Virus record (IMG/VR): IMGVR_UViG_3300021387_000106
Location: 32,001 to 96,000 of that record
DNA from: a virus
Taxonomy: Duplodnaviria > Caudoviricetes
DNA length: 64,000 nucleotides
Strand: one strand, 5' to 3'
Shown one piece after another: positions 40,001 through 64,000 of the stretch; within the stretch, counting starts at the first letter, position 1, and the number at the start of each line of letters is the position of its first letter. The notes beneath the pieces were generated by a model. It ran no database searches. It saw only the letters and a list, made by a program, of their open reading frames with translations, and was not told the DNA's origin. A program made the translations under genes and the position numbers.

Positions 40001-43000
40001 ACGAGATTTAGCTTATCAATCCTATTACCAAGATTCTCAGCAGTACGCTGTGCAGCCTTCATTCTGCTTTCAGCATCCCTCAAATCCTGAGTAAACTGGC
40101 TCAGATTATTCTTATTGTAGAAAGAACTTGATTTGACGTTATTGTGTGCCAAAGCCTCAGAAGCCAACATTCCCTGACGGATTCCGAAATCCTGAACGGT
40201 GGCAGTATTGGAAGTACGACCATTATTGCTATAAATCTCCTTCATCAACTGGCGAACCTTTTCAAGATACTCGATGTATCTGTCAAGACCAGACACGTCA
40301 ACATTAGCCGTAATACCTCTTGCACGAAGGGCTTGCAACTCATTCAGCTTCGCACCAAGTTCATTATACTTAACGTAGGCATCATTTACGCTCTTGATTT
40401 CGTCTTTCAGACGTTTATCATCGGCTCTATCAGAACGTCTATTAGACTGTTGCTGTGCAGTAGTCAAACGTTCCTCAGACTTACGGAGTGCATCGGTATC
40501 ATCACGAAGTGTACGGATATTCTTAATACGCTTCTCAACAAGCACGTTGTTCTGCATATCGGCAGGAGTCATACCTTTCAGCAAGTTCAACTGACCCTGC
40601 AACTTGCTACGTGCATCAGTGAGAATAGTCATATCACGTCCTGGGGTGGCAGTACCGCGACTGATAGCGGAATCCAACTTACGCATTTGCGCCTCAGTAC
40701 GCTCTATTTCCTTCTGAATATCCTTTTGAGCCTGAATAGCCGCTTTAGCCTTTTCTTGCTCTGCCTTTGCGTAGGTTTTCATCTGAGACTCCTGCCAACG
40801 CTCAACATTCTTCTGGTATTCCTGTTCCTGCCTTGCAGCTTCTTTCTTCGACTGGTTGGTAAAACGCTCTACCTCTTTATTATATTCATTCTCTGCCTTG
40901 ATGCGCTCCCTTGTGAAAGCGTTCAAGTCAGTAACCATTTGCTTAGAGTCTTTAAGCGTATGGGTATTGTCGGGATTGATGACGGAAGCATAGCCGTGAC
41001 GAGTACCAAGCAATTGCTCATTCGTCATGGCAGTAAGAATCTCCTGCTTGATAGCGTTCAATCGGTTAATCTGCTGTGCAACGGCTTTCGTCATATCTTC
41101 ATCAGCATACTGCGAAGCGTTGCGCCATGCTCTCATAATACCTTGAATGGCATCCTGAACGTTATAAAGTCCAGTTTCAAGACGTGTGGTATTCCATTGC
41201 TTGATAGAGGCATTGGCATCAGTCAATGACATATCCTTTACCAATTGCCTTGCGGCGGCAGACGTATCGGTAATGCTATGTTTCAACTTGTCGTAATGAG
41301 CATTGAACATAGCAACATCATCGGCTCTACCAGGCAACGGCAACTTCAATGACTGAGGTGTATTCAGGAATCGGATAATATCGGGATTGTCACGATTCTG
41401 CAAGATAAGGCTTATCCATCTGTTGAGCGTTTGCAGATAGTTCATATTGGAATCTTGAACAGCTTGCAGCTTATCCATTCCTGCAACCTTATGACCTTCC
41501 ATATACTTAGAACTACCCTCTGCAAGTTTCATCATGCGCTCAATATGAGCTTGCTCCTTGATAAGTGTCTGAATGTTCAACTCACCAACACGATTGATGG
41601 TTTCCATAGCAGCACCTACACCGCCAAAGCCTTTCGAGCCAGTGGAATTGAACTCTTCAACACGCTCTTTGAGTTTCTGAATGGCAGTCTCAAAGGATTC
41701 GGCAGCACGACGACCAGAAAGAATTTCCTCAACTATCTTTTGGAAATCCTTAACGGCTTTGTCGCTCCACATTTCCTTAGTCTGCTTACCCATCAGCAAC
41801 TCACCATTGAACTTAGTGGCATCGGCTTTCAATGCACCAGGCTTAGAGAGCGTATCAGTCATAGTGGCTACCTTCTGCAACCACTCGTAATACTCTCTGA
41901 GCTTCAATAGTCTTTGCTCCAGTCCGTCATCACGAAGTTTCTGATTGCTCAGTTTCTCGTACTCAACGGCAATCTGAGTCAGAGCCTCATAGACATTCTT
42001 CGTATGGTTCTTTAATACGTCGAGGTTTGCATTAAGGGTGGTTTCGCTACCTTTCTTCTCTGATTGCATCTTCATACCCTCAACACTCTTCGAGAGTTCA
42101 TCAACCTTCTGCTTTGCACTGGCAGCATCACTTTCTACTTTCTTGAATGTCTCAGGTGTGACAATGGCTTTCAGAGACGATTCCATGCGATTTGTCGATT
42201 CCCACAACAAATCCATTGACTTTTTTAGTTGAGCAACTGCCTCATTGAGAGTCTTGATAGTAGGCTCAATAGATGACAAGTCAATGTTGAATGAAGGAAC
42301 TTGCACGTTCTGAACACCAGTTGCCTTCACCATTGCCAGTTTCTCCCATTGCTCTACGACCTGAGTAATCTTCTTACGCAGTTCCTCGAATTGGGCTACC
42401 ATCGTAGCAATAGTTCCTTTATCCTGACCCCATGAGCCGATAGCCATTTTGAGGTTATTGGTGGCAGTAGTCAGTTCTTGCGTAGCCGTAAGGAGTTTCT
42501 GAATAGCTTCTGCATTGGCTTTTGAGGCAGATGCAGCCTTATCTTCGGCAGAAGAAGTCTCATCAACTGCTGCTGCATTCTTTTTACGGGCCTGAGTTTC
42601 TTTCTGAATAGATTCGGTAGTCTGATTTTTCGCACGATTGGCACGTTCCTGACTCTCCGATATTTTTTCGAGATTCTTTGCACCTTCGCCAAGTGATTTC
42701 AAGTTCTTGGTACTCTCCTTAACGGAAGTGCCAGCAGCAGTAAGTACCTCAGAAAGATTCTTAAAGGCAGTGGCGAAGGAATCAATGATAGGACTGCCAG
42801 ACAACCCGGATTTCTTCAATTCATCCATCTGTGACTGAACAGCCTCCATTTCCTTTTTGACCTCAGTGAAAGCCCCCATCTTACCACCTGAGAACGATTC
42901 GCCTGAGCTCATGATGTATGCTGATTTCCTACTCAGCATATCCATTGTGTTAGCGAGTTCAAGGAACTTCGCAATATCCTCACGATTACCTCCCAATATG

Positions 43001-43908
43001 GTATAGAGATTCTTTGTAGCTAACGTGGCAACGGAAATCGAATCAGCGACACGAAGGATAGAAGCGGCAGTAGCTTGTGCCTGCGCTTCCTCGGCTTTCA
43101 AAGCGGCAGCAGCAGTATTCGTAGCAGTAGCCAAAGAATCCTCGCTGACCTTCACATCGGCTTTCTTCTCATTAAGATTGCCAAAGGCTTTAGCCAAAGC
43201 CTGCGCCATCTTGGAAGTTCCTTCATCTACCTTTGCGACATCAGTAGCCATATCCTTAACACCACTTCCAGTACCAAGGCTCTTCAACTGGCTAACCAAG
43301 GAACTGAAAGCATTGACAAGGGCATCTACCTTTGTAGTAAGACCGCCAACCTCACCAGAAAGCGACTCCATACCAGCCTTTGAACCACCGATACGAGCCA
43401 TATTCTCCTGAATGGTGTTACCCATATTCTTGAAGGTGTCCATTGTGGCACGGGCTACATTCTCGCTCAAACCAAATTCCTTCTCCAAGTTGGCTCTTGC
43501 GGTACGATACACCTGACCTAATGCCATAGTGGGACCAGTGACATCAGCCTGACCTTCTTTCAGTCCTGCTTTCTCCCTTGCTTTCTGATAGTTCTCATAG
43601 GCAACAGTCACTTTCTGCAACTGCTTTTCGAGATTGCTATAATCAATATCCTTTGGAATCATGCCAAGACGAACCATTGAGGCCTGCAAATTGTCAATCT
43701 TATGCAGCAACGGCTCTAACATCTTACCATCACCCAACTGCTTCAAAGCATCAAGGAACGTCTTTAAGTCGTTGGATTTCTCCAATTGCACCTTTAGACT
43801 GATAGAGTTGTCGGCCATCTTAGCAAGAGCCTTTACCTCTTCCAGTATCTTGTTGTATTCCTCGTTGGCACGTTTGATACCAACTTCAAACATGAGAGTG
43901 TTAGCCAT
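34048..43908 (-). CDS. Tape measure protein (3286 aa)
   Basis: Long helical protein with a TMP core (AVKSPFGVVELDKMSKQLTAYGF...LADISAATG); follows the chaperones. Confidence 0.92.
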   Translation of the reverse strand: MANTLMFEVGIKRANEEYNKILEEVKALAKMADNSISLKVQLEKSNDLKTFLDALKQLGDGKMLEPLLHKIDNLQASMVRLGMIPKDIDYSNLEKQLQKVTVAYENYQKAREKAGLKEGQADVTGPTMALGQVYRTARANLEKEFGLSENVARATMDTFKNMGNTIQENMARIGGSKAGMESLSGEVGGLTTKVDALVNAFSSLVSQLKSLGTGSGVKDMATDVAKVDEGTSKMAQALAKAFGNLNEKKADVKVSEDSLATATNTAAAALKAEEAQAQATAASILRVADSISVATLATKNLYTILGGNREDIAKFLELANTMDMLSRKSAYIMSSGESFSGGKMGAFTEVKKEMEAVQSQMDELKKSGLSGSPIIDSFATAFKNLSEVLTAAGTSVKESTKNLKSLGEGAKNLEKISESQERANRAKNQTTESIQKETQARKKNAAAVDETSSAEDKAASASKANAEAIQKLLTATQELTTATNNLKMAIGSWGQDKGTIATMVAQFEELRKKITQVVEQWEKLAMVKATGVQNVQVPSFNIDLSSIEPTIKTLNEAVAQLKKSMDLLWESTNRMESSLKAIVTPETFKKVESDAASAKQKVDELSKSVEGMKMQSEKKGSETTLNANLDVLKNHTKNVYEALTQIAVEYEKLSNQKLRDDGLEQRLLKLREYYEWLQKVATMTDTLSKPGALKADATKFNGELLMGKQTKEMWSDKAVKDFQKIVEEILSGRRAAESFETAIQKLKERVEEFNSTGSKGFGGVGAAMETINRVGELNIQTLIKEQAHIERMMKLAEGSSKYMEGHKVAGMDKLQAVQDSNMNYLQTLNRWISLILQNRDNPDIIRFLNTPQSLKLPLPGRADDVAMFNAHYDKLKHSITDTSAAARQLVKDMSLTDANASIKQWNTTRLETGLYNVQDAIQGIMRAWRNASQYADEDMTKAVAQQINRLNAIKQEILTAMTNEQLLGTRHGYASVINPDNTHTLKDSKQMVTDLNAFTRERIKAENEYNKEVERFTNQSKKEAARQEQEYQKNVERWQESQMKTYAKAEQEKAKAAIQAQKDIQKEIERTEAQMRKLDSAISRGTATPGRDMTILTDARSKLQGQLNLLKGMTPADMQNNVLVEKRIKNIRTLRDDTDALRKSEERLTTAQQQSNRRSDRADDKRLKDEIKSVNDAYVKYNELGAKLNELQALRARGITANVDVSGLDRYIEYLEKVRQLMKEIYSNNGRTSNTATVQDFGIRQGMLASEALAHNNVKSSSFYNKNNLSQFTQDLRDAESRMKAAQRTAENLGNRIDKLNLVKVDFAKAGIDTTPLQNAIDKIRAIQQELANFGRTGFSSYGTSGKEIASNMGLNAANKEANDAIHQLNINKRVAANVNNQLTESEQRLANSIRGATDSMKGQSQVLSDLKMLAMQYISVWGAQSFINSIIETGGLLEQQRLSIGAILQNAGQATELFGQIKALAVKSPFGVVELDKMSKQLTAYGFEYKELYDWTKRLADISAATGTSVDRLALALGHVRSEGALSGYTLRQFAMGNVPVLRMLSENLGISTKQVREKVRKKEISYEDVQEVLRQLTDEGGMFYEAQEVMSQALNAKFKNLRDAFDIMYGEIAESGVGTALKKIAETLTAGAKEWGRYGKDMLGVVGVLGVAKIATLAYNQAIGANTVSVLNQAAAHQKEEVNILRLAKEYRALTAEEWKLLATHSHWYATSGKLTASNLAVLLSTKKLSQEELFRAVALGKINKELALEAVLAMKAATAEERHAKAVMLWELRSVTSVSKMRVAWITLGNAIRKAGSAIWSFGKIALPMAALTVIMDMFARVSEMKSKAEEASHDLAEKATSDLKVLGDIFKELQDDNFIKSIDEASGKFVAGKRVVSNLVEFNDDALSKEDLTQRIEELKNKLADLSPMYEGDLVDIDKMNNQVEQFKLIVRKLESIRHANDVTEAMSNVITDADVDVAGSNWFTRLFGDSYTTDIKDYAERLNDAEKDISGINEEIIDRIDKQLGGKIAELQKKYSLGSKNDALSHLFADWAKNGVPNRDIYDTLAGKVFRNATQGGFGRTLRGQYQQLEADTKEMAEKMSSIIVNEFSNDPDGAIYAISTYMKKLLSMSGITDPRVMEDATRLMLEAMREYLPKNMQGSIIDEMQKRILMEQFMGLVGNTIKESTSPEEAEKALQKYSELTIKWGESMGYDMEKLGMNHAEAYRDGLDAKLNAVKLKTDWQKRASQVFVENIAIKTNFDKSLDEFAQAVQKDLKEKQAYLKRNQAHLKMTLNIDTDVLMNADKLRALMDKLAIEGQKKAMNGDWDGAQAIYSRIDKEIKPYYDALMAVQEDKSWLKKEGYPETDPTKGNKGKQEDKEAKRLREIAKLYKDAYDWYNKYEKQVGEAGALKKVQAQFQPLFDEFNKTWKTNLTLDSIPTYKKNLTELLNEAMKLYKTPKHKNSYMVEAIKQLRDAISNVDYEEANRKMDEFASKVKIQLDNLTRSWDLFNSVRESTGDVALANQLSGAKYKNGNTQNLADATRQKIEKDFEEAGGRYSLEFDINLSDDEIQKLFEDTERWGVLESSVKKYQEQIKGLVEEYQKWRDLQRDVYKNDVQIFAKVTGSVMTYEAQLRRINDEYEREVAAITRLRDQRKNGEKDANGNLLGITEEQYKAAMAKLDSDKEWKTFQMGAQYINFMNGAIGQTKKAIEDAAKAVENSLNKAVKKGTIDAKTYAEQMRKIRDVVDKFREDSFFGVQNTITAFMQGGLKGSNEFAKDRLQALETKEKNGGLTEDEEKEKKHLVDLQNKLSKVIGSLSSFATILQMATGVADGLVNATQSLANMFQALGNTGAANFWGDLSDGIKAGTSFLAPANNIVQNAMSGNIGGVVSSVISSPIDMIAAPITGFAKLHDKRRERRIQELKEEVSRIANNTELILKTRQRTLGYDSGNLRQLYSNQYYHQENVDFASKLTGLAGAIIKGSRYGRGFNSAAEEAMYNYYQQNGEGSGYKQQLANLRSEREKYMQMYNEEEDKKDSSGEAMEEYKKKIAELDDQIHYFALDLANELWSIDMKGWAQQLTDALATAFENGTNMAKAYKKAVEDILRSLAGKMMQLAIIEPIMQKLQNKLFGTQNADGTWSGGVFDIDNPEKSAKQVTNIIAKFFGKGGEGEAAIKAGEVFLAEFERGVNQAGLSIKNRDESSLSGSIKSITEETADIIASYVNAIRADVAMNRMFITMFIQEYWASYIEQITSVHTTLRNIDRNVAAMALTFSEAGKIYGMIENISNRLDKFANGVDKISVQ

Positions 43909-47343: not shown

Positions 47344-48486
47344 TTACTCGTGATATACGGTTGCGATACCGTAGTCGTGAGTGTTGTTGAACACCGGGCC
47401 TGCGTAGAGTTCGCAATCCACGATATTCATCATAGGACGATCCTGCCAAACATTCTGAACGGCAATACGACCCTCTACGAAAGAGGTACGAACGCTGTCA
47501 TTGTGTGCGCCAGCCTCGGCACGGTCTTTCAGGATGGAGTTCATGCACTTCATCTCGAATGGACGATATGCGCGGCTTGCAGCAACCATGTTGTGAATGT
47601 CGAAAGCTGGTTCATCGTTCACGGGCTTTCCGTCCTCTTCGTGGCGAGACTTGAAGTCGATGACCTGGAAAGGCCAAATCTTCATGTCGTTGTGCAACCA
47701 CTGGAGAACGTCAGAGTCAACTACCTTAACCAGCGTTGGTGAGAAGTAGTTCTTAGAAGCAGTGTAAGCGTTGCGAACGCTTGGGTGCTTGATAATCAGG
47801 TCGAGCAGACTCTTAGACAGCTTCCAGTGATCCACACCAAGATTCAGGGTCTCAGTGTAATACTTTTGGAACGCCTTAACATCCTCGATGATGTCAGCAT
47901 CCTCGTTGGCAACGAGTTTACCACCCTCATACTTGAACCACTCCTTACCAGTGTCGGGAGAAACAAAGTTCTCGTCGGGAATCTGGAACTTGAAGTCGAA
48001 CTTGTAGCCATCAACGGCAACATCGTGAATCTCACCAGTTGACATTGCCTGCAACGTCATATAGGTAAGTTCGTTGTGTACGCCGCCAAGCATATTCTGT
48101 GAGTTGGTGATGAAGCAGTCAACCAACGACTCGCCAAACGTCATATCATTGAGCTTCGAGATACGACGAAGTTCAATCATGTCGTCCTGAGTGATGTTGA
48201 AGCCATGACCTACCTGGGGCAGAGTTCCACCGTAGATTTCCCAACCCATAGTGCTGCGCTGTGGCTTCTCAGAGTGAGTACCCAGAACAGATGCACGAAC
48301 GAGAATAGGAGTCTTCTTGATGCCCTGCTTCCACTCACGCTCATTGGTCGGTTTACCCCAAGACGCAAACTGACGCCAAAGTGCCTGATTGTACTTTGCG
48401 TTAGCGTTGTCGAGGATAAGACCAAAATTCTCAGCATCTACATACTGATGCAGACCGCTGATTCCGTAAAGTCTTGCGTCTCTCAT
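47344..48486 (-). CDS. Major capsid protein
   Basis: 380 aa; lambda-E-like LQAMSTGEI segment; strong codon bias; position. Confidence 0.8.
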   Translation of the reverse strand: MRDARLYGISGLHQYVDAENFGLILDNANAKYNQALWRQFASWGKPTNEREWKQGIKKTPILVRASVLGTHSEKPQRSTMGWEIYGGTLPQVGHGFNITQDDMIELRRISKLNDMTFGESLVDCFITNSQNMLGGVHNELTYMTLQAMSTGEIHDVAVDGYKFDFKFQIPDENFVSPDTGKEWFKYEGGKLVANEDADIIEDVKAFQKYYTETLNLGVDHWKLSKSLLDLIIKHPSVRNAYTASKNYFSPTLVKVVDSDVLQWLHNDMKIWPFQVIDFKSRHEEDGKPVNDEPAFDIHNMVAASRAYRPFEMKCMNSILKDRAEAGAHNDSVRTSFVEGRIAVQNVWQDRPMMNIVDCELYAGPVFNNTHDYGIATVYHE

Positions 48487-50249: not shown

Positions 50250-52904
50250 ATGGAGAAATTTACAGGACTTACGACTACCGATGGAAAACCCGTAATATCC
50301 AATGAATTTATTGCGGACTTACGGGAGCGTGAAAAAGACAAGATTCAATCAAATAATTTTGTCGCTCAGGTTGGTCCCCAAGAGGATGACCTTCACGCTT
50401 CCGTTGACATTCTGATTACTGGCGGTAATCGTGGTGGTGGAAAAGCCAATACTTACTATACCCCGATAGTTACTCCCTATGGTTATAAGAGAATGGGCGA
50501 ACTTGAAGTTGGTGACGAAATATGTACTCCATACGAAGGTGTGCAGAAAGTCACTAACATATTCGAGCAAGGCGAAAAAACCATTTATAGTTTCCATTTC
50601 GATGACGGAACAAGTGTTCAATGTATGGACGAACACCGATTTTGGGCTAAACTGACAGCATCTGGCGACTATAAGGAACTGACTGCAAGGGAGATTATGA
50701 ACAACTACAAGTTGGGATTGAAGAATCCGCAATCTCTACGTTCAGGTCGTGAATACACCGAGATTCCTCTTTGCGGAGAGGTGAAGATGCAGGAGAATGT
50801 AACTCCTATTGACTTACCTATCCACCCATTCCTCTTTGGTCTTATAGCAGGGAAAGGTGTTTGGCATTTCGCAAAGATTGGTGTATCAATCGTAAACGCT
50901 CCAAGAGTATTGCAGTTTGCCTACAAAATGGGTTACAAGCCAAAGAAGATTAATGGTTTCTATTACCTCAAAGGAATAACCGATGAAAACAGACGGATGA
51001 TTACGAAATGCCGTGCAGAGGAACCATCCTTTATACCTCAGGAATATTTGACTGCAAGCATAGAAGCACGTTGGGATTTGGTACGAGGTATTTTGTACTC
51101 TGGAGGTAGATCAAAGAATAAGCATCCTTATCTTGCACTGCCTAACAAACGTTTCGTTACGCAATTCGCTGAACTTGTCCGTAGTCTTGGTGCTTGGGCG
51201 AAAGTGTCAGAAATTACCGATGACCCTGAAAAGGTTGGGTACTGGCAATGTATAATGATTTTCCCCAATGACAAGGAAGCATGGCAGAAGTGCGATTATA
51301 AAAACATGGCACACATCAATGCCGATAAGATGGTTAGCCCGACACAAAGAGGCTGTTTGACAAAGAAGATTCTCTATATCACAAAACAAGACCATAAGCA
51401 AAAATGCAGATGTATAACGGTTTCTGGCAAGCATCACTTGTATATGACTGATGCTTTCACTATCAACCACAACACGTTTACTTTGCTCATGGAACCATTA
51501 TATGACATCGACAATCCACGATTCAATGGTGTCATATTCCGAAAAGAGAAAGATGACCTTAATAATATTATACGCACGTCGCGCCTGATGTATAGTCCTT
51601 TCGGACACTTCAACAAGTCTAAGGATGATTTGACCTGGTACTTCGATAACGGCTCTGAATTGTCATTCCAGTACTATGCTGATGCGTTTGATGACTTCAA
51701 AGACAGATTCCAAGGACGTGAGTATTCCTTTATCGGTGTGGACGAGATTACGCAGATTGAGTTTGAAAAGTTCAAGTATCTCGTAACGAACAACCGAAAT
51801 TCAGCTTTCATCAAGAATAGGATGATTGGCACTTGCAACCCTGACCCTCTTTCATGGGTACGCAAGTTCATTGACTGGTGGATTGATGAAGATGGATTCC
51901 CAATCAAAGAGCGAGACGGAGTTATCCGCTACTGCTACATGAAAGGCGATTCCGTTGATACAATCGTTTGGGGTGATACCCGTGAAGAGGTCTATGAGCA
52001 ATGTAAGGAAGAGATAGATAAACTATGGGAACCTGAATATGAGGAAATGGGCTATACCAAGGAATCTATGTTCACGAAAGCCGTTACATTCATTCGTGCT
52101 GAGCTGAAATACAACCGCAAGCTGTTGCAGACCGACCCATCGTATTTAGGAAACCTCGCACAACAGGGAGAGGAACAGCAAGCCCGTGACCTTCAAGGAA
52201 ACTGGAACTTCATGGCAATGGGTGATGACCTTATCAAGATGATTCATTTGCAGCGTTGCTTTGAGAATCCGCAAATGATTGGTGACGGAATACACAGAGC
52301 CAGTTGTGACGTTGCTTTCACTGGTGGCGACAATTGCGTACTTTGGCATTGGATCGGTTGGCACGTAGCTGATGTGTTCGTCTGTAAGCTCGATTCGGTG
52401 AGTACTTGCAATGCTATCAAGGCGAAACTCGACGAATGGGGAGTGCTGGAAAAGAATTTTGTATATGACCTCAACGGATTAGGACAGACTTTCAAAGGTT
52501 TCTTCAAACAAGCACGTCCGTTCAATAACGTTGAGGCTGTGGAACAGAAATACAAAAACATCTACGACAGCAAGAAGTCGCAGTGTATGTATCTCTTTGC
52601 AAAGAAGATTATCGACGGAGAAATCAGTTTCTCACCTGAATTGCTCGATAGAAAGTTTGAAGTTGGTAAGAGAAATGGAAAGAAAGGTCAAGTGATGCGA
52701 CTCAGAGACATTCTGATGTTAGAGCGCAAATGCGCACGTCAGGATGAATCGAAAGCCGATAAAGGATGGTGTGTCATCAAGAAGGAACAGATGAAGCAAC
52801 TCGTAGGTTGGTCGCCTGACTTCTTTGAATCCTTGATGATGCGGCAGGACTTTGATGTAAGTCGCAAAACCGTGACTATTCCCGGTTGGGTTCGTAATTT
52901 CTAA
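50250..52904 (+). CDS. terL: Terminase large subunit containing an intein
   Basis: Walker A GGNRGGGK/T, Walker B IGVDE, coupling motif TCNP, nuclease motif CDVAFTGGD. Confidence 0.93.
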   Translation: MEKFTGLTTTDGKPVISNEFIADLREREKDKIQSNNFVAQVGPQEDDLHASVDILITGGNRGGGKANTYYTPIVTPYGYKRMGELEVGDEICTPYEGVQKVTNIFEQGEKTIYSFHFDDGTSVQCMDEHRFWAKLTASGDYKELTAREIMNNYKLGLKNPQSLRSGREYTEIPLCGEVKMQENVTPIDLPIHPFLFGLIAGKGVWHFAKIGVSIVNAPRVLQFAYKMGYKPKKINGFYYLKGITDENRRMITKCRAEEPSFIPQEYLTASIEARWDLVRGILYSGGRSKNKHPYLALPNKRFVTQFAELVRSLGAWAKVSEITDDPEKVGYWQCIMIFPNDKEAWQKCDYKNMAHINADKMVSPTQRGCLTKKILYITKQDHKQKCRCITVSGKHHLYMTDAFTINHNTFTLLMEPLYDIDNPRFNGVIFRKEKDDLNNIIRTSRLMYSPFGHFNKSKDDLTWYFDNGSELSFQYYADAFDDFKDRFQGREYSFIGVDEITQIEFEKFKYLVTNNRNSAFIKNRMIGTCNPDPLSWVRKFIDWWIDEDGFPIKERDGVIRYCYMKGDSVDTIVWGDTREEVYEQCKEEIDKLWEPEYEEMGYTKESMFTKAVTFIRAELKYNRKLLQTDPSYLGNLAQQGEEQQARDLQGNWNFMAMGDDLIKMIHLQRCFENPQMIGDGIHRASCDVAFTGGDNCVLWHWIGWHVADVFVCKLDSVSTCNAIKAKLDEWGVLEKNFVYDLNGLGQTFKGFFKQARPFNNVEAVEQKYKNIYDSKKSQCMYLFAKKIIDGEISFSPELLDRKFEVGKRNGKKGQVMRLRDILMLERKCARQDESKADKGWCVIKKEQMKQLVGWSPDFFESLMMRQDFDVSRKTVTIPGWVRNF
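50445..51473 (+). mobile_element. Intein (343 aa) with a degenerate LAGLIDADG domain
   Basis: Splits the P-loop between K and T; begins ANTYYTPIVTPYG; block B CMDEH; ends CITV...HN/T. Confidence 0.9.
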
Positions 52905-52916
52905 ATACATAACGTT

Positions 52917-54683
52917 ATGGAGACTATAAAAGAAACTATCAAGATGCCACTAAGGGAACTTCTTACCAAGAGACCCTTCACACGCATCATGCCTGATGGT
53001 CATTACGATCATGGCGAATTTACGGGAGAGGTGAAAGAGGAATCTCCAGTAACCGACTTCCTATTGCGTAAAAGGGTCACTCAGGAGGATTTTCTTCGTG
53101 AACTCGACCCATGCGGACACCTTATCAATGACCGCGAATATTATCCTGACATTTGGCGCAAGAGCGAAGATGGACTTTGGTACTTAGAGGAAGTACCTCG
53201 CTATTCATTCGCATACCAATGGATAATCTTGCAGAACCAACTCACGCACTTAACTGGTAACGACGTTCAATTTGAACTCGCAGAGGAAGAAAGCGAAGAG
53301 CATTTAGATGTGTTCTCGGCTTTCAAGGCAGGATGGGCTGACAAGAATATGGAAGTTGCCTGGTATCAGTTCGCAAAATCGGTCAAATCAACTGGCGACG
53401 CTGCCTTTGTCGCTTACCTCGACAAGGGAGAGTTCGGTTGGAAGGTGCTTTCTTTCCTCAATGGTGATAGATTGTTTCCTCACTACGACAACAAGACTGG
53501 TAAACTGAGTACCTTTGCACGTACTTACAGCAATTTCGATGATGAAGGTCGTATCAGCAAGCGTTACATCGACGTTTGGGATAACAAATACTATTATCGC
53601 TTTGTTGCCGATGGCGACCCGAAGAATACCATTGAGAAGGTAAAACAGAGCATCTTCAATTTCTTCAATATTGATGGTTACAAACTGGAGTATGCAGAGG
53701 AACATGGATTTGACGAGATTCCTGTTTCATACCAACGTGACGATTTCGGGCCATGTTGGACTCTCTCGCAGGAAACTATCGACAACTACGAAATGGCTTT
53801 CTCTCGTCTCGCACAGAGCAACCACAATTTCGGACTGCCTATCATGTATGTCAAAGGCGAAGGTTCTCAGGAAGTGTCCTCAAAGGACATGAGCCATGCA
53901 AGCAAGGTATTCTTCCTGCCCTCAGACGGTGAAATGGGATTCCTAAACCGTCAGGATGCTTCCAATGCCTATAAGACGGAACTTGACATCTTGGAGAATC
54001 AGATTTATTCGCAGTCTAACGTTGTTAAGACTCCTGAACTGAAATCCGGCGACCTGCCAGCAGCAGCTATCAAGTTGCTCTATACTCCTGCATACAACAA
54101 GGCTATGTCTGACAGCAACGAGTACGCTCTCAGTCTTGACAAGATTGTGTATTTGTTCAAGTTCGGTTTCGGTATCGAGTCATTGCACCGCCTTGACTTC
54201 ATGAATACTCGAATCAGTCACTTCATCAAGCCTTACGTTCACCTGAACGAAACTGAGCTGACTACCAACCTCTCTATGCAAGTTCAGAACGGCTTCCTCT
54301 CTAAGCAGACAGCATCGGAGAAATCTCCATACGCTACACCGCGTGAGTGGGACCGCATCATTCGTGAGAAGAAGGAAGAGCAACAGCAGGAACTTCTACT
54401 TGAAGAGCAGAGACTTGAAATCCAGTCAGTGCAGCAAGTAGATACTCAGGAACAACTTTCGGAGATCAATACCGAACAGCAGATTGAGGTTGCAAAGGCG
54501 GAGAATCAGCTTAACGGCAATCAGCAGACCACTGACAAGAAAACAAAGAAAGTGAAATCCCATAAAGGTTCGTCCGCTACTGGTCGTGGACGTGGCAGAA
54601 CCAATCGTTCAGGTCGTAGATATGACGAAAACGGCAATTGGGAAGGTCGCAATAATTGGGATAATTGGAATCGCAACCATTAA
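52917..54683 (+). CDS. Portal protein (SPP1 gp6-like)
   Basis: Follows TerL; HGFDEIPV, IDNYE and LSKQTA motifs. Confidence 0.85.
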   Translation: METIKETIKMPLRELLTKRPFTRIMPDGHYDHGEFTGEVKEESPVTDFLLRKRVTQEDFLRELDPCGHLINDREYYPDIWRKSEDGLWYLEEVPRYSFAYQWIILQNQLTHLTGNDVQFELAEEESEEHLDVFSAFKAGWADKNMEVAWYQFAKSVKSTGDAAFVAYLDKGEFGWKVLSFLNGDRLFPHYDNKTGKLSTFARTYSNFDDEGRISKRYIDVWDNKYYYRFVADGDPKNTIEKVKQSIFNFFNIDGYKLEYAEEHGFDEIPVSYQRDDFGPCWTLSQETIDNYEMAFSRLAQSNHNFGLPIMYVKGEGSQEVSSKDMSHASKVFFLPSDGEMGFLNRQDASNAYKTELDILENQIYSQSNVVKTPELKSGDLPAAAIKLLYTPAYNKAMSDSNEYALSLDKIVYLFKFGFGIESLHRLDFMNTRISHFIKPYVHLNETELTTNLSMQVQNGFLSKQTASEKSPYATPREWDRIIREKKEEQQQELLLEEQRLEIQSVQQVDTQEQLSEINTEQQIEVAKAENQLNGNQQTTDKKTKKVKSHKGSSATGRGRGRTNRSGRRYDENGNWEGRNNWDNWNRNH

Positions 54684-58724: not shown

Positions 58725-59131
58725 TTGCTTTCACTTTTAGTTTCGTCAACAAAATCACATGGTGGCATCGTCTGCAAGCGATAGGCAAGGATGGTCTTCC
58801 TGCCCTCAACAATCGCCCGACATATTCTATGCGCACCATCAGCAATCTGACCCAAATTGTCAAGAATGATAGGTATCTCGATGTCGCAGTCCATGCAACG
58901 CTTCATCTGCCAAATGAATTCGTCCATAGAAGATACGGAGAAATGCAACACAGAGAGGTCGAGACCCGCAAGAGGCAACTCGAACGGCTCCAGTCGTTGA
59001 TTATGGCACGCACGATACAACGTAGTAGCCATCCAGTGCTCACGCCCGCGAGTATAAACGCTTTCGCTGAACTCAAACGCTCCCAAGTCAATAACAGGAG
59101 GCTCATGTACTATTATATTTCCTTTCTTCAT
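58721..59131 (-). CDS. ParB/Srx-like domain protein
   Basis: PIILDNLGQIADGAHRICRA. Confidence 0.75.
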   Translation of the reverse strand: MKKGNIIVHEPPVIDLGAFEFSESVYTRGREHWMATTLYRACHNQRLEPFELPLAGLDLSVLHFSVSSMDEFIWQMKRCMDCDIEIPIILDNLGQIADGAHRICRAIVEGRKTILAYRLQTMPPCDFVDETKSESK

Positions 59132-60576
59132 ATATACAAATGAGCGAATTTATCATCATCAAAGAACAGATAATAGATATTACCGATGTTCTTATGGTCT
59201 TTCTTCACACCCATACGAGTCATGGCACGTCCGAATCCGTTAAATTCCTCATGCTCATAGCCCATAGAGTCACACCAAAGACAATACTCCTGAAAGAGCG
59301 CATTTGCCAACACAATCTTTGGCTTTTCATCCAAATTGCCGACACGGAACGTCTCTCTGATACCATTATCATCAAAGAATACCCTCACAGTCTGCTTATT
59401 CTCTATCATATACTCACGCTTTGCCGACTCGCTGACACCAGCACCGACAAAAGAGAAATTATCAGCAGCCAACTTCAAATAGCCCTGCATCATCCAGTTA
59501 CGAATACCCGAATACTCACTTCTCAGAACCGAATCAAGGTCACGTCGAATATCCTTGTCCGTCACCTTCGCCCTGAAAGGAATGAATACCAACCTTCGCA
59601 TCATTGCCTTATCAAGATTGCTGTTCGTCGGCTTCCTATTCATGCTGAATATCATAAACGGAATATCATACGCTATCTCGAAATCACCGCCAATGCGTCT
59701 TATCGTCTGAGGTGAACCGCTACATAACGACTTGAAAGCATCCTCATGCCTGGTAATGTCATAACTCTGCACCTCGTCACATATATTGAACGTGCGCCCG
59801 ACAACTCCTGCAAGCAATCTCGCCCTTACATCAGGATTGCCACTGACAAGATTACTCAATGACTCCACGCTGATATTCCAAGCACCAAGCACACCTGTTA
59901 TGACATTCGTGATAGTGGTCTTACCATTACCGCCACCGCCAATCATCCATAAACTCTCTTCGACCCTATGGCTCATAGTGGCACGATTCACACAACCAAG
60001 ACCCAAATACTTCTGTAACGTCAGTATCTCACTATCGGGTAATATCTCACCAAGGAAATGAATCCAGTTCGGGCAGGTAGCATTTGGATCATAATCATAA
60101 TCCAACAACTGAGTAACTGCCATCCTATCCCGGAACTCATAGCGTATCGGATTGCTCACATCGGAGAAATCCCAAACACCATTTCTGAAACCTACCAAAG
60201 AAGGACTTACACACAAAGGACTCATAATAGCACCATCACGCAGACTGCCAGCCAACTTCTGACTACTCTTGACAATATCATCCTTACCAATACCCAACTT
60301 ACGCAAAGCATCACGCAAAGCATACTCCATACAGCTATTAGTGGCTTTGTCAAAAGGCTTCCATACCATGCCATCAAAGTAATACACAACACCATGCAGA
60401 CTTCTCAGACACTTCCTGCCAATATCACATACGAGATTTTGGTAATCATAAAGCCTATCACCATAACGCTGCTGATGGTAAGCCTCTACAACACGCTTCT
60501 TATCAACACCAGATGCAAACTCGTCTCGTAACTGGCGTATCAATCCGTCCTGTGATGATTTTATCCCTTTTTCCAC
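59128..60576 (-). CDS. D5/P4-family SF3 helicase (primase-associated)
   Basis: FRNGVWD, YDPNATCPNW, Walker A GGGGNGKTT, CDE, RRLVFIPF. Confidence 0.88.
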   Translation of the reverse strand: MEKGIKSSQDGLIRQLRDEFASGVDKKRVVEAYHQQRYGDRLYDYQNLVCDIGRKCLRSLHGVVYYFDGMVWKPFDKATNSCMEYALRDALRKLGIGKDDIVKSSQKLAGSLRDGAIMSPLCVSPSLVGFRNGVWDFSDVSNPIRYEFRDRMAVTQLLDYDYDPNATCPNWIHFLGEILPDSEILTLQKYLGLGCVNRATMSHRVEESLWMIGGGGNGKTTITNVITGVLGAWNISVESLSNLVSGNPDVRARLLAGVVGRTFNICDEVQSYDITRHEDAFKSLCSGSPQTIRRIGGDFEIAYDIPFMIFSMNRKPTNSNLDKAMMRRLVFIPFRAKVTDKDIRRDLDSVLRSEYSGIRNWMMQGYLKLAADNFSFVGAGVSESAKREYMIENKQTVRVFFDDNGIRETFRVGNLDEKPKIVLANALFQEYCLWCDSMGYEHEEFNGFGRAMTRMGVKKDHKNIGNIYYLFFDDDKFAHLYI

Positions 60577-60656
60577 TATATATAAAACAATAATATAAAT
60601 ATTATAATACCCAATTAAGAAATATTACTTCATTTACTTCATTTTGCTTCACAGCA

Positions 60657-60714
60657 CAAAGATAAACACCTTTATTTAAAGGCATTGCGAATGATTTCTA
60701 AAATCTCGCCATTT
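60657..60714 (-). promoter_or_regulatory. Promoter with a third copy of the conserved upstream element
   Basis: -7 box TATCTTTG at 60664-60657 and TTTCTAAAATCTCGCCATTT at 60695-60714. Confidence 0.65.
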
Positions 60715-61181
60715 GAGAGCAAAATTGCTTCAAAAACACCCATATTGCTTCAAAACAACCATCATTTAACAATTAATTAACCCAAAAAACACCTCGTTTT
60801 ACCCCAAAATGACGCATTTTTCACACAATATTTACTACACCATTTCACCAAATGTTAAACAATTAACACTCGAAATGTTAAAATTGAAAATTAAAAAATT
60901 AAAATAAAAAATTTTTGTGGGAAGTCACAAACACCGTTTGGTCGATTTTTGCAGGGGGCTCCCCTCCATATTTTGTAAACATTTTAGATAAAAGGTTATA
61001 TTATATGTATAATGTAACTAACTGAAAATCAATTAGTTAGACGTACTTTTGAAGTGGGGAAAATCGTCTCCTTTGTCCTTTATTTTCGTACTTATTGAAG
61101 ATGATAAAAAACGTTTTTTGCTTTCAGGCTTTTAGTTGCAAATAATGAAGTATCTTTATTGCACATATATTATAATGTACG

Positions 61182-61189
61182 TACATTTG
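61182..61189 (+). promoter_or_regulatory. Bacteroidota -7 box (TACATTTG)
   Basis: Upstream of the Ala/Glu/Lys-rich gene. Confidence 0.55.
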
Positions 61190-61354
61190 CAGTGCATCTA
61201 CTTAGTAGGTGTGCGCTGTTTGACGTTCTGAGGTTACTGCTAAGGCTGCTGAGGCACTTGCTGAGGCTCTGAGGCTCTTAGTAGACTACTCACGCAATAG
61301 GGCGCTCGTTCTTTGACTTATTTACATTGTTTCACTCTTTAATACATTATCATT

Positions 61355-62434
61355 ATGGAAAAAAAGGTTTTAATTAGTGCACTTGCTGCACTCGTTCGTC
61401 CGAGTTTTAATGTTGCTTCTTATGAGGCTGAGTATTTAACTAAGGCTTTTGCTGCTGCTAAGGGTGATGCTAAGGCATTTGCTGAGGCTGTTGCTGCTAA
61501 GGATTCTGAGGTTGCTAAGGCTGCTGAGGATTGGAAAAAGGCAAATGCTGAGGCACTGGCTAAGGCTGAGGCTGCTGCTACTCCTTATCTTATTATCCGT
61601 ACCTTATTAGATAAAAAGGCTAAGGCTGAGGCACTTGTTGAGGCTAAGGCTGCTAAGTTGGCTAAGGCTACTGAGGCTAAAAAGGCTGAGGCTGCTGAGG
61701 CGCTGGCTAAGGCTAAGGCTGAGGCTCAACCAGTTCGGGCACTTGCTGAGGCACTTGCTGAGGCACTTGCTTTTGTTAGTAGTCCGACTGCTGAGGCTAA
61801 GGCTGAGGCTCTTGCTAAGGCTCTTGAGGTTGCTGAGGCTGAGGCTGCTAAGGGTGTTTTCAATATGTATTGGGATTGTAATAATACTGAGGGCACTCGT
61901 TTAACTGCTGAGGCTGATGTTTACTATTTGCCTACTTCTTTGGGATTCGCTGAGGCTGCTGCTAATTGTCTGCTTAGTTACTCCGTTTTTGCTGAGGTTG
62001 CTGTTAGACGTGCTAAGGCTGCTGAGGCTATTGAGAATCTTCTCAACGGCTTAACTGATAGGATGGTTAAATGCATCGAAAAAGGTGCAAAGATTGAGGC
62101 TGTTAGGGCTAAGTTGTCTGAGGCACTGGCTGAGGCTGAGGCTAAGGCTGCTGCTAAGGCTGAGGCTCTTGCTGCTGAGGCTGCTGCTAAGTTTAAGCGT
62201 GTTTCTCTAACTGCTGAGGCTGCTGAGGCTGCTGCTAAGGCTGCTGCTTGCAAGGTTGGCACTGCTGCTAAGAAAAAGGCTGAGGCTGAGGCTAAGAAAA
62301 AGGCTAAGGCTGCTGAGGCTGCTGCTACTGCATGGAACGTGTTTAAACACGAATACGCTGAGGCTGCTGCTAAGGCTGAGGCTGAGGCTTTTGAGGTTGC
62401 TGAGGCTGTTGAGGCTGAGGCTGCTGCTAAGTAA
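61355..62434 (+). CDS. Ala/Glu/Lys-rich helical protein (359 aa)
   Basis: AT-rich start context, own promoter and terminator, non-repetitive central segment. Confidence 0.7.
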   Translation: MEKKVLISALAALVRPSFNVASYEAEYLTKAFAAAKGDAKAFAEAVAAKDSEVAKAAEDWKKANAEALAKAEAAATPYLIIRTLLDKKAKAEALVEAKAAKLAKATEAKKAEAAEALAKAKAEAQPVRALAEALAEALAFVSSPTAEAKAEALAKALEVAEAEAAKGVFNMYWDCNNTEGTRLTAEADVYYLPTSLGFAEAAANCLLSYSVFAEVAVRRAKAAEAIENLLNGLTDRMVKCIEKGAKIEAVRAKLSEALAEAEAKAAAKAEALAAEAAAKFKRVSLTAEAAEAAAKAAACKVGTAAKKKAEAEAKKKAKAAEAAATAWNVFKHEYAEAAAKAEAEAFEVAEAVEAEAAAK

Positions 62435-62457
62435 CTTAAAACTCTCTTTCTAAGTTT

Positions 62458-62510
62458 GAGGCTAAGGCTTAACCAGTCTTAGCCTCTTTCTTACTTTCTT
62501 TTTTTTCTTT
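62458..62510 (+). terminator. Intrinsic terminator
   Basis: GAGGCTAAG...CTTAGCCTC followed by a T-rich tract. Confidence 0.65.
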
Positions 62511-62557
62511 TCTGAGTGAGGCACTTGCTTGTAAATAAGTCGAATTATTAAATATGT

Positions 62558-62695
62558 ATGGTTACTAAAAAGGTTAAGGCTGAGGCACTGGCTGAGGCTG
62601 CTGCTTTTATTGTGTTCGATTCACAAAATATTTGCTATTACCTTTTTGTTTGGTTTTTATTTTCTGAGGCTGCTGCTGAGGAAAATAAATTTTAG
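62558..62695 (+). CDS. Small ORF (45 aa) with AEA motifs and a hydrophobic core
   Basis: MVTKKVKAEALAEAAAFIVF...YYLFVWFLFSEAAAEENKF. Confidence 0.35.
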   Translation: MVTKKVKAEALAEAAAFIVFDSQNICYYLFVWFLFSEAAAEENKF

Positions 62696-63096
62696 TTTAC
62701 TTTGAAAATATTTTTTTCTTAGACTACACAAATAAAAAGGCTGCTCTTTGACAAAATGAAACGAAATAAATATTGTTTGGAAAAGTTTTCATTTAGATTT
62801 TATTCTTTTAGATTTTAATTTTCTTAGATTTTATTTCGTGAACACTGCAAGGCTATTACCAGATTTTACTTTTTTATAAAGATTGATCTTGCGAGCTTTG
62901 CAGAATTGATACAAGATATAATTCATAATTGAGTTTTATCAGATGCAGGAGAGTGCAATACGGCACTCTCCTTTGTTGTTTGGATTTTATTTTTTGTTTT
63001 GATTGGTTATTCCTGATTTCAAAATATTTTTTTGAGATTTGGATTTGAGTTCGATTCTCAATCTTAGCGCAATTAATTTTTAAAACTCAAAAGATT

Positions 63097-63321
63097 ATGA
63101 AAAGAAAAGATTACTATTTAGTTCGTGACAATATCTTAGGAATTGTCATTGGTGGTTTTACTGTGATCGCTGATTACGAGTTACCAATTTCCATTTCCAC
63201 AAAAACATATTTGCAATATGTGGAAAATAAGAGAAAAGCAATTTGCAGAGAAATGCACCTGAAAGCAAATTGTTTTGAATCTTGGTTAGTAGATTTAGTT
63301 ACCTACCGTAACCGCTTATAA
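63097..63321 (+). CDS. Hypothetical protein
   Basis: TTAAAACTCAA...TTATG start context. Confidence 0.6.
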   Translation: MKRKDYYLVRDNILGIVIGGFTVIADYELPISISTKTYLQYVENKRKAICREMHLKANCFESWLVDLVTYRNRL

Positions 63322-63462
63322 GATGTATAACTTAAAACTTAATTGAATTATGAAAAATCTATGTGAATTTGCCGAAAGTATTTTGGCACGGAACACGATC
63401 GAAACTTTTATTGAGATTATTTGCAGTTTGTCAGATGATGATGTAAAACAGATAATTGCAGG

Positions 63463-63771
63463 ATGAAAGTTTTGGATGATAGAAAGCGGTTAGACTATCA
63501 GCGTAGTTTAGCCGCACAATTTTTCTGCAAGAATTATTCGAGGGAGCAAAGATACCTGATTATTTTGCAGAGAGATTTGGAGAAAGGATTTCAAGCCATT
63601 ACGAGCTTGGGAATTGAGAAAGCGAAGTCTTTCCAGATATTTTATGATTTTCTTTTGGATTTTGAGAATCTGAATGAAAAGATGATTGAGTTTCGTTGGA
63701 GTGAAGATTTTCTGAATGAAAACGGAATTGACTATTCTGAATTGAAGAGATTATATCTCGCTGCGAATTAG
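63463..63771 (+). CDS. Hypothetical protein
   Basis: 102-aa ORF coupled to a short upstream ORF (63350-63466). Confidence 0.6.
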   Translation: MKVLDDRKRLDYQRSLAAQFFCKNYSREQRYLIILQRDLEKGFQAITSLGIEKAKSFQIFYDFLLDFENLNEKMIEFRWSEDFLNENGIDYSELKRLYLAAN

Positions 63772-63817
63772 TTTTTGTGGCGAGGACTATTTATTCACTT
63801 TAAAACTCAATGACATT

Positions 63818-64000
63818 ATGAAAAAGAATCTGATTATTGTAGTGGTTACTGTTTTGTCGGTTTTCGCTATTGAGAGTGCGGTTTACTTTGGCTACTGGTG
63901 TAATAATCTCCACAAGAGATATTCTTTGGTGGTAAATCAGAATCGCAAAATGAGAAATGAGATTCGCAATTACGAGGAAATCTTGGATTCTATTGACAAC
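63818..64000 (+). CDS. Partial membrane-anchored protein (runs off the window)
   Basis: MKKNLIIVVVTVLSVFAI... Confidence 0.5.
   Translation, partial: MKKNLIIVVVTVLSVFAIESAVYFGYWCNNLHKRYSLVVNQNRKMRNEIRNYEEILDSIDN

Follow-up and report, generated by a model that had tools for sequence, protein, structure and literature searches.

In the window analysed here, a 64-kb stretch corresponding to bases 32001-96000 of a 109.8-kb tailed-phage genome (IMG/VR record IMGVR_UViG_3300021387_000106; G+C 41.5%), a gene for a 359-aa protein (61355-62434, + strand) and its untranslated flanks are filled with copies of a single heptanucleotide, GCTRAGG (R being A or G). We are fairly confident that this heptanucleotide is a selected nucleic-acid word overlying a real accessory early gene. 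The early gene is swappable and belongs to a rumen phage. The window held 59 copies, all on the + strand, where dinucleotide shuffles gave 10.8 +/- 3.3 and 23 at most. All but one of them lay between 61239 and 62681, hereafter the field, the - strand of which had none, and across the whole 109.8-kb genome only one copy on the + strand and one on the - strand were found beyond it. The original prediction of about 58 copies within 1.45 kb, in a single orientation and unparalleled elsewhere in the window, was thus confirmed by the count (58 on the + strand and 0 on the - strand in the field).

Fifty-one of the copies stand within the gene, every one of them in codon frame 0. Three more are found in the leader (61239, 61248 and 61260), one in the 5' arm of the terminator hairpin (62461) and three 3' of the gene (62579, 62591 and 62675); the 637 nt of non-coding cassette DNA carry seven full words where 0.05 would be expected. 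Copies in the leader and in the terminator stem had been predicted as well. The copies attributed to a second small open reading frame (ORF), however, are non-coding. This 45-aa ORF (62558-62695) is not a conserved gene since its core GTGTTCGAYTCAC changes frame relative to the words from lineage to lineage; in other lineages the start codon is missing or a stop codon lies inside. The unit itself can be written as (G)CT-RAG-G(C), about 6-8 nt long and often phased as the hexamer GCTRAG, which in RNA form makes the repeat (GCUGAGGCUAAG)n. Within the gene, the spacing from word to word was always a multiple of three, with 6, 12, 9 and 18 as the commonest values, and in the leader it was 8-12 nt. 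Tandem Repeats Finder returned many short runs with periods of 6, 9 and 12.

The codon use of the gene collapsed largely to GCT, GAG and AAG, as the original prediction had it: GCT made up 109 of the 122 alanine codons (0.89, against 0.36 genome-wide), GAG 44 of the 47 glutamate codons (0.94 against 0.45) and AAG 35 of the 44 lysine codons (0.80 against 0.60). GTT (20/21, 0.95 against 0.43) and ACT (12/13, 0.92 against 0.44) behaved in the same way. This codon use set the gene apart as the only outlier in a set of 105 ORFs; none of the others with at least 100 aa came near it.

Sequence comparison indicates that the 359-aa gene is a genuine protein gene, because five diverged homologues (43-67% identity) aligned colinearly with few indels and had conserved islands in common. 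The invariant islands include FNMYWDC.N..G.R, LG.AE.AAN.LLS..VFA and TAW.VF; E and K positions were partly conserved across the homologues, and a conserved island showed 11 synonymous changes against one to two non-synonymous ones. The distribution of the protein is narrow. An hmmsearch against 1.84 billion cluster representatives yielded only three clusters and one fragment, no relative was found in IMG/VR and GTDB genomes, a blastn search of the phage collection gave no match and the syntenic 211-aa protein of the nearest outgroup had no detectable homology to it. Pfam, PHROGs and PADLOC held no family for the protein, a profile search of the PDB returned only weak coiled-coil noise and the ESM Atlas nothing usable. 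An AlphaFold2 model was all-helical and poor (predicted local distance difference test 62, predicted template-modelling score 0.34). In a metagenome variant of the 480-aa homologue (L011), a premature stop was observed at codon 324 (TGC to TGA, with the next codon changed from TTG to GTG; L011:3238-3243), the word array being intact.

Between lineages, codon identity at conserved residues matched the expectation for independence (window against P0001: 47 identical alanine codons with 45.4 expected, and 36 with 30.5 expected for other residues), so that synonymous sites have to be regarded as saturated. Nevertheless, GCT accounted for 66-91% of alanine codons in each of the six lineages, and GAG and AAG were likewise kept. 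The fact that saturated lineages still share these codons shows that the bias is an equilibrium and not the relic of a recent repeat expansion.

The choice of codon further depended on its neighbours, as seen in counts pooled over six homologues. For glutamate, the ratio of GAG to GAA was 188:4 when the next codon started with G and 27:43 otherwise. For lysine, AAG prevailed at 125:7 following a codon ending in CT and at 106:4 preceding GCT, with 40:53 elsewhere. Alanine was encoded by GCT in 90-92% of cases preceding GAG or AAG and in 58% preceding GAA or AAA. Outside the word context, the 359-aa gene favours GAA and AAA. No such effect was present in the remaining genome, where the fractions of GAG and AAG before G were 0.48 and 0.52 and where GCT was chosen before GAG/AAG in just 16% of cases (11-16% before RAG if the phage's own high-bias genes are included). 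In these high-bias genes the trend was even the opposite, GCT before RAG being avoided. Avoidance of CTGAAG (1 against 88 expected) and of AGCT (0.5-fold) accounts for part of the glutamate rule, but neither for the lysine rule nor for the choice of GCT.

Rates of change pointed in the same direction. In two pairs of close relatives, the window with L009 and L002 with L010, a change was seen at 4 of 277 third positions of alanine codons, compared with 13 of 180 other four-fold sites (p=0.002), and at 3 of 198 third positions of glutamate and lysine codons, compared with 6 of 86 for other two-fold codons (p=0.025); word positions thus changed about five times more slowly than the other synonymous sites of the same gene, with the caveat that many of the latter changes in the window-L009 pair were bunched in codons 205-251, possibly a recombination patch. 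Outside the coding sequence, word clusters of diverged lineages occupied the same three places, namely the leader, the terminator arm and the downstream spacer, with differing internal arrangement. Equilibrium bias, context-dependent codons, about five-fold slower change and non-coding clusters together support the earlier proposal that the DNA or RNA motif is the selected unit. Consistently, the homologues do not mix their synonymous codons freely, two lineages being looser than the others.

Sibling genomes show that an accessory immediate-early cassette (61192-62908, + strand) contains the field. This cassette consists of leader, gene, terminator and downstream spacer and is the first unit in the phage's rightward run of small genes. 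The siblings were found via a 171-aa backbone protein as three 20-kb loci. One of them (L036) carried a 480-aa version of the gene with 57 words. The other two (L037 and L038) were 97-98% identical in DNA to the window, through the helicase gene and the intergenic region, until 61191-61195, just 3' of the promoter -7 box, and similarity came back from 62909. In between, their slot was occupied by an unrelated 248-aa gene with ordinary codon use, zero copies of GCTRAGG and no other repeat array either. This alternative cassette had kept both GTTCTTTGA(C/T) leader boxes, the intervening sequence being different. More distant relatives, reached through the helicase, carried further non-homologous genes in the slot, which lies upstream of their helicase gene, some of them with tandem repeats or one-strand word runs: (GAGAGCACT)x17 encoding Thr-Glu-Ser in L021, (ACCGAG)n in L023 and L033, a non-coding 14-bp unit repeated 20 times at the contig end in L029, and 13 same-strand copies of GCTGGTG, five of them within full GCTGGTGG, in L027. 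As a separate observation, one of the near-identical siblings had a gene for a 426-aa NUMOD/HNH-type homing endonuclease (L037:7832-9112), inserted so as to separate the portal gene from the next head gene; it is not in the window.

The cassette has a regular layout, all of it on the + strand. The final backbone sequence on its 5' side is a Bacteroidota-type -7 promoter box, TACATTTG (61182-61189), which was invariant in six of six lineages and was also present in the cassette-less siblings; it fits TAnnTTTG, the consensus of Bacteroides promoters. It is followed by a first leader box, GCGCTGTTTGAC (61213-61224), the position of which is kept in the cassette relatives and, with the GTTCTTTGA(C/T) box, in the alternative cassette; by its sequence this box resembles boxA or a -33 element. 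The leader word cluster (61226-61276) contains five TRAGG, three being full GCTRAGG. It was kept in four of six lineages, each with its own arrangement, and was minimal in the remaining two (L006 and L007); in L009 it differed by one 8-nt unit. A second leader box, GCGCTCGTTCTTTGAC (61302-61317), about 40 nt 5' of the start codon, showed strong conservation in every lineage, as it did in the alternative cassette. Boxes of the form GCTC(G)TTCTTTGAC in fact recurred in leaders, at 61213-61224, 61302-61317 and 62743-62763, and were kept by the alternative cassette. They may act in antitermination of the NusB/NusE type or as -33 elements of promoters; at 62743, the copy (TGCTCTTTGACAA) is one base off the E. 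coli rrn boxA (TGCTCTTTAACAA).

Downstream of the gene, whose product is an Ala/Glu/Lys-rich helical protein, follows an intrinsic terminator (62458-62507) with a 12-pair stem and a T run. The 5' arm of its stem is made of the word, and the stem was preserved in relatives through compensatory changes between GCTAAG/CTTAGC and GCTGAG/CTCAGC. The downstream spacer holds two non-coding word clusters. The position of cluster A (62574-62606, words at 62579 and 62591) kept words in L001, L036, L008 and L007, degenerate ones in the latter, and that of cluster B (62665-62681, word at 62675) had three words in L001 and two in L008. Between both lies a conserved DNA core, GTGTTCGATTCAC (62612-62624). 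A search of Rfam over 60500-63500 gave no match. Overprinted frames were dropped as an explanation since the +1 frame of the gene is split into five short ORFs.

With respect to function, it is quite possible, if a little less than probable, that the gene doubles as a protein code and as a one-orientation array whose roughly 60 copies titrate or recruit a putative host factor. Among the candidates are RNA-binding proteins, ribonucleases, small RNAs and DNA-end nucleases, and the nucleic-acid function would shape the Ala-Glu/Lys-Ala sequence of the protein. As to the mechanism, we tentatively propose, as a possibility and not more, an RNA platform. The words would act on the single-stranded sense transcript, which would be abundant early and carry about 60-75 word copies, making it a multivalent binding platform or sponge for a word-recognising factor. 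Candidate readers would be a host RNA-binding protein or ribonuclease, or else an RNA containing CCUUAGC, the U of which would pair with A or G at the R position. As the cassette encodes no other conserved protein, the reader would have to come from the host or from the phage backbone, unless it is the Ala-rich protein itself. The paper on RbpB offered no short motif for comparison.

The level of action leans slightly to RNA rather than DNA because all copies are on the sense strand of one transcript that starts at the cassette edge, because the word doubles as a terminator arm, because A or G at R suits pairing to U, and because folding predictions give the native mRNA less structure than its synonymous alternatives (-354.8 kcal/mol; permutation of the same codons gave -380 +/- 9 kcal/mol and recoding with genome usage -392 +/- 11). 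Several points weigh against the RNA platform. Polarity and location within the transcript are equally expected of a polar DNA element, and for the coding copies polarity follows from the reading frame alone. Two lineages (L006 and L007) are without the leader cluster and have half the words, which means that copy number is not critical. The weaker folding could be a by-product of the few words, and the leader RNA did not fold better than shuffled sequence (z = -0.58). Finally, the word is depleted on both strands elsewhere in the genome, a signature of double-stranded DNA that an RNA mechanism does not explain.

A somewhat unlikely alternative is that no dedicated reader exists and that the pattern reflects a heavily translated, weakly folded Ala-rich mRNA combined with avoidance of restriction words. 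Translation would favour four-fold codons ending in U and glutamate and lysine codons ending in G, RAG before GCU would avoid the AGCU palindrome, GAG would avoid CTGAAG, and the non-coding clusters would be slippage copies of coding segments. T- and G-ending codons are indeed the direction of bias in the phage's probable high-expression genes, the scarcity of CTGAAG and the halving of AGCT leave GAG as the only choice where GCT precedes and G follows, folding is weaker in the native mRNA than after recoding, and the leader cluster duplicates a coding segment (GAGGCACTTGCTGAGGC) and varies in length among relatives. This account covers parts of the pattern, but neither the reversed context rule, in that the high-bias genes of the backbone avoid GCT before RAG and the gene itself returns to GAA and AAA outside the word context, nor the persistence of perfect words in non-coding clusters at a divergence where synonymous sites are saturated. 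Moreover, GCA throughout would avoid the same palindromes, fold even less and equal the usage of the rest of the genome, and CTAAAG is not avoided although lysine after CT is almost always AAG. Two related ideas failed as well: tRNA supply, as the window has no tRNA gene, and an 'ambush' of off-frame stops, as the third base of the codon that follows influences whether alanine codons end in T. A neutral hexanucleotide microsatellite, in which (GCTRAG)n expanded by slippage or concerted evolution with an ORF running through it, is very improbable. The many short runs of period 6, 9 and 12, the true tandem repeats in the slot of relatives and the variation of the leader cluster by whole units speak for it. 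Sequence comparison largely refutes it, however, by the three codons common to six lineages despite saturation, by colinear proteins with few indels and partly conserved E/K positions, and by word positions that are slower, not faster, than other synonymous sites.

Explanations at the level of DNA have to be weighed against the same data. In a polar Chi-like array, a host helicase-nuclease of the AddAB/RecBCD type entering from the right would read the word on the + strand and stop degrading, and the cassette would do at the level of DNA what a Gam-type anti-nuclease early gene does. An asymmetric word of 7-8 nt in one orientation across coding and non-coding DNA, in an accessory module whose slot is typical for counter-defence genes, would suit such a function, and the Chi word of Bacteroides AddAB, in particular that of B. 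fragilis, was unknown in 2010 (PMC2887965). The run of GCTGGTG in the slot of L027 might be taken as a parallel, but follows from the G+T-rich composition of that stretch. A Chi-like function thus fits the polarity as well as an RNA function does, but not the depletion elsewhere: a host Chi word should be neutral or useful in the rest of the phage, where it is depleted 7-10-fold. In addition, 58 copies are far beyond need and only DNA on one side of the array would be protected, so that we consider this reading unlikely. A still less probable one is that the cassette counters a host system reading an asymmetric CCTNAGC-type word, either as a decoy in cis or as a patch that recruits a modifier. 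Bpu10I recognises CCTNAGC and BbvCI CCTCAGC, and GCTRAGG is the reverse complement of CCTYAGC. The identity of GCTNAGG with a Bpu10I-type site, noted in the original prediction, is therefore real, while its link to restriction is statistically weak. Outside the field, GCTNAGG occurred six times (three on each strand, hence without strand asymmetry) where about 30 were expected, a five-fold depletion that one-off variants did not share and that ranked 41st among 2080 XXXNXXX patterns. Since only one of six hexamer phases was depleted and 7.6% of testable 7-mers were equally low (observed/expected <=0.15), the probability of a chance overlap is near 0.4. Among array-less relatives, two depleted GCTNAGG relative to the control (G003, 9 against 32; G004, 5 against 23), from which it appears that some hosts select against it; the others (G002, 30 against 39; G005, 14 against 14) and above all the nearest outgroup (G001, 32 against 35, undepleted) differed. 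As depletion varies among relatives without the array, it looks like ordinary lineage-specific restriction avoidance rather than an effect of the array. The phage as a whole purges many restriction words, which agrees with a restriction link. To our knowledge, however, no restriction mechanism is blunted by extra sites in cis, and the phage gave no match to the Bpu10I family (PF09549), a search in which control genomes gave none either. A restriction link is possible but unproven. The near-absence of restriction-type words was a general trait of this genome, with TGATCA and ATGCAT at 0 besides the single CTGAAG, and with GAATTC, TTCGAA, AAGCTT, CTYRAG and GGNCC-type words avoided as well. Least credible of all is an essential cis element, such as an iteron-type origin for the superfamily 3 (SF3) helicase, a pac site or a centromere. 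The field does adjoin the helicase gene at 780 bp, across an AT-rich divergent spacer with a change of sign in GC skew. Yet its absence from L037 and L038, with their near-identical backbone and no other array in the slot, rules such elements out unless these siblings are defective, and the replication or packaging protein loading zone put forward in the original prediction has to be abandoned on the same grounds. An R-loop or G-rich origin is unlikely, the GC skew of the field being only +0.21.

The phage assembly was circular, with a 107-bp end overlap, and the window does not lie at a mapped genome end. Among sequencing runs, the DNA runs with matches were labelled rumen, bovine or sheep gut; no RNA runs were listed. 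The window contains the genes for the major head protein (47344-48483), the large terminase (50250-52901, 884 aa) and the portal (52917-54680), and, on the - strand, the D5_N/DUF5906 SF3 helicase (59128-60576), which is divergent from the 359-aa gene. A search for the helicase among bacteria gave a distant Amphibacillus protein as sole match, and bS21 was not found in the phage. The N-terminal 290-residue extension of the terminase matched DnaC-like helicase-loader and primase P-loop profiles. The largest ORF of the genome, with 3286 aa (34048-43908, - strand), has a size reminiscent of the virion RNA polymerases in N4-like and crAss-like phages.

To the right of the 359-aa gene, small + strand genes continue up to the assembly junction and past it. 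Most of these rightward genes are preceded by a hairpin of 8-13 bp, mostly 11-13 bp, with a TTAGTT-type loop, and by a shared leader. At least 21 such hairpins, with stems unlike in sequence, were found from 63768-64000 of the window on to 95.7-109 kb of the genome, and the same type occurred at genome positions 1766 and 4518. Each was followed by a common leader of about 35 nt (ACTATTGTTTCACTTAAAACTC..AATTATG) and then by a small gene. The hairpins give the impression of processing or regulatory elements placed between one early cassette and the next.

As a rule, a functional nucleic-acid element within a coding sequence is one site or a short structure. In the present gene, about 180 synonymous positions seem to be held to one word, to the point of fixing a third of the protein's residues, and the word spreads into the untranslated flanks as well. 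If a reader exists, phages would be using a new format of counter-measure or regulator here, in which an early mRNA, or its DNA, serves as a sponge of high valency, and the cassette would be a clean natural case of a protein sequence shaped by a nucleic-acid function. If there is none, it would still be a case of unusually strong context-dependent synonymous selection. Near-identical siblings with and without the cassette occur in rumen samples, which makes the system suitable for experiments.

Several known systems share features with this field. Phage lambda has the iterons of its ori inside gene O, and in P4 arrays of octamers at ori and crr serve the primase-helicase. As in our case, repeated words are located in or beside a gene near a replication helicase, but those elements are essential and conserved, whereas the field is missing from near-identical siblings. 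Chi (GCTGGTGG in E. coli, shorter words for AddAB) is likewise short, asymmetric, orientation-dependent and tolerated in coding sequences via frequent codons; it is dispersed and over-represented in genomes, while the present word is concentrated within 1.45 kb and depleted in the rest of the phage. TRAP and HutP, which are ring-shaped proteins, bind leader RNAs in which (G/U)AG or UAG triplets are repeated with short spacers. Our field is reminiscent of these targets in that one RNA strand carries many NAG triplets, closely spaced and starting in the 5' leader. The unit here is longer (CU-RAG-GC), though, with spacers of 3, 6 or 9 nt and about 60 copies running through the coding sequence, and the 75 TRAGG of the sense strand are irregularly spaced, with distances of 8-12 nt for the leader copies and of 6-18 nt for those in the gene. 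Sponge RNAs of bacteria and phages, for example prophage-encoded anti-sRNAs that mimic the target sites of small RNAs, provide a precedent for a phage transcript with target-like words that could titrate a host regulator. The known ones are small non-coding RNAs with a single site or a few, and not mRNAs with about 60.

The vrRNAs of VIPR are non-coding RNAs of about 100 nt with 9-16 pentanucleotide YNNGG units and hypervariable NN (bioRxiv 10.64898/2026.04.26.720920). They, too, are phage-encoded tandem arrays with a conserved GGY element. In our field most copies are coding, in-gene spacings are multiples of three and TRA is nearly fixed; we reject this assignment since T-R-A stands between GG pairs in place of the variable NN of a pentanucleotide. 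For the organisation of the slot, the closest description is that of the promoter-early stem-loop (PeSL) cassettes in T4-type phages (Arbiol et al. 2010, PMC2839356), where non-essential early genes between an early promoter and a stem-loop are exchanged among close relatives. The PeSL model accounts for the swapping, not for the word field, and the promoters here are of the Bacteroidota type. The likeness nevertheless comprises the 5' break at the promoter -7 box, the terminator hairpin after the gene, the siblings with an alternative gene, and the hairpin with shared leader in front of each later early gene.

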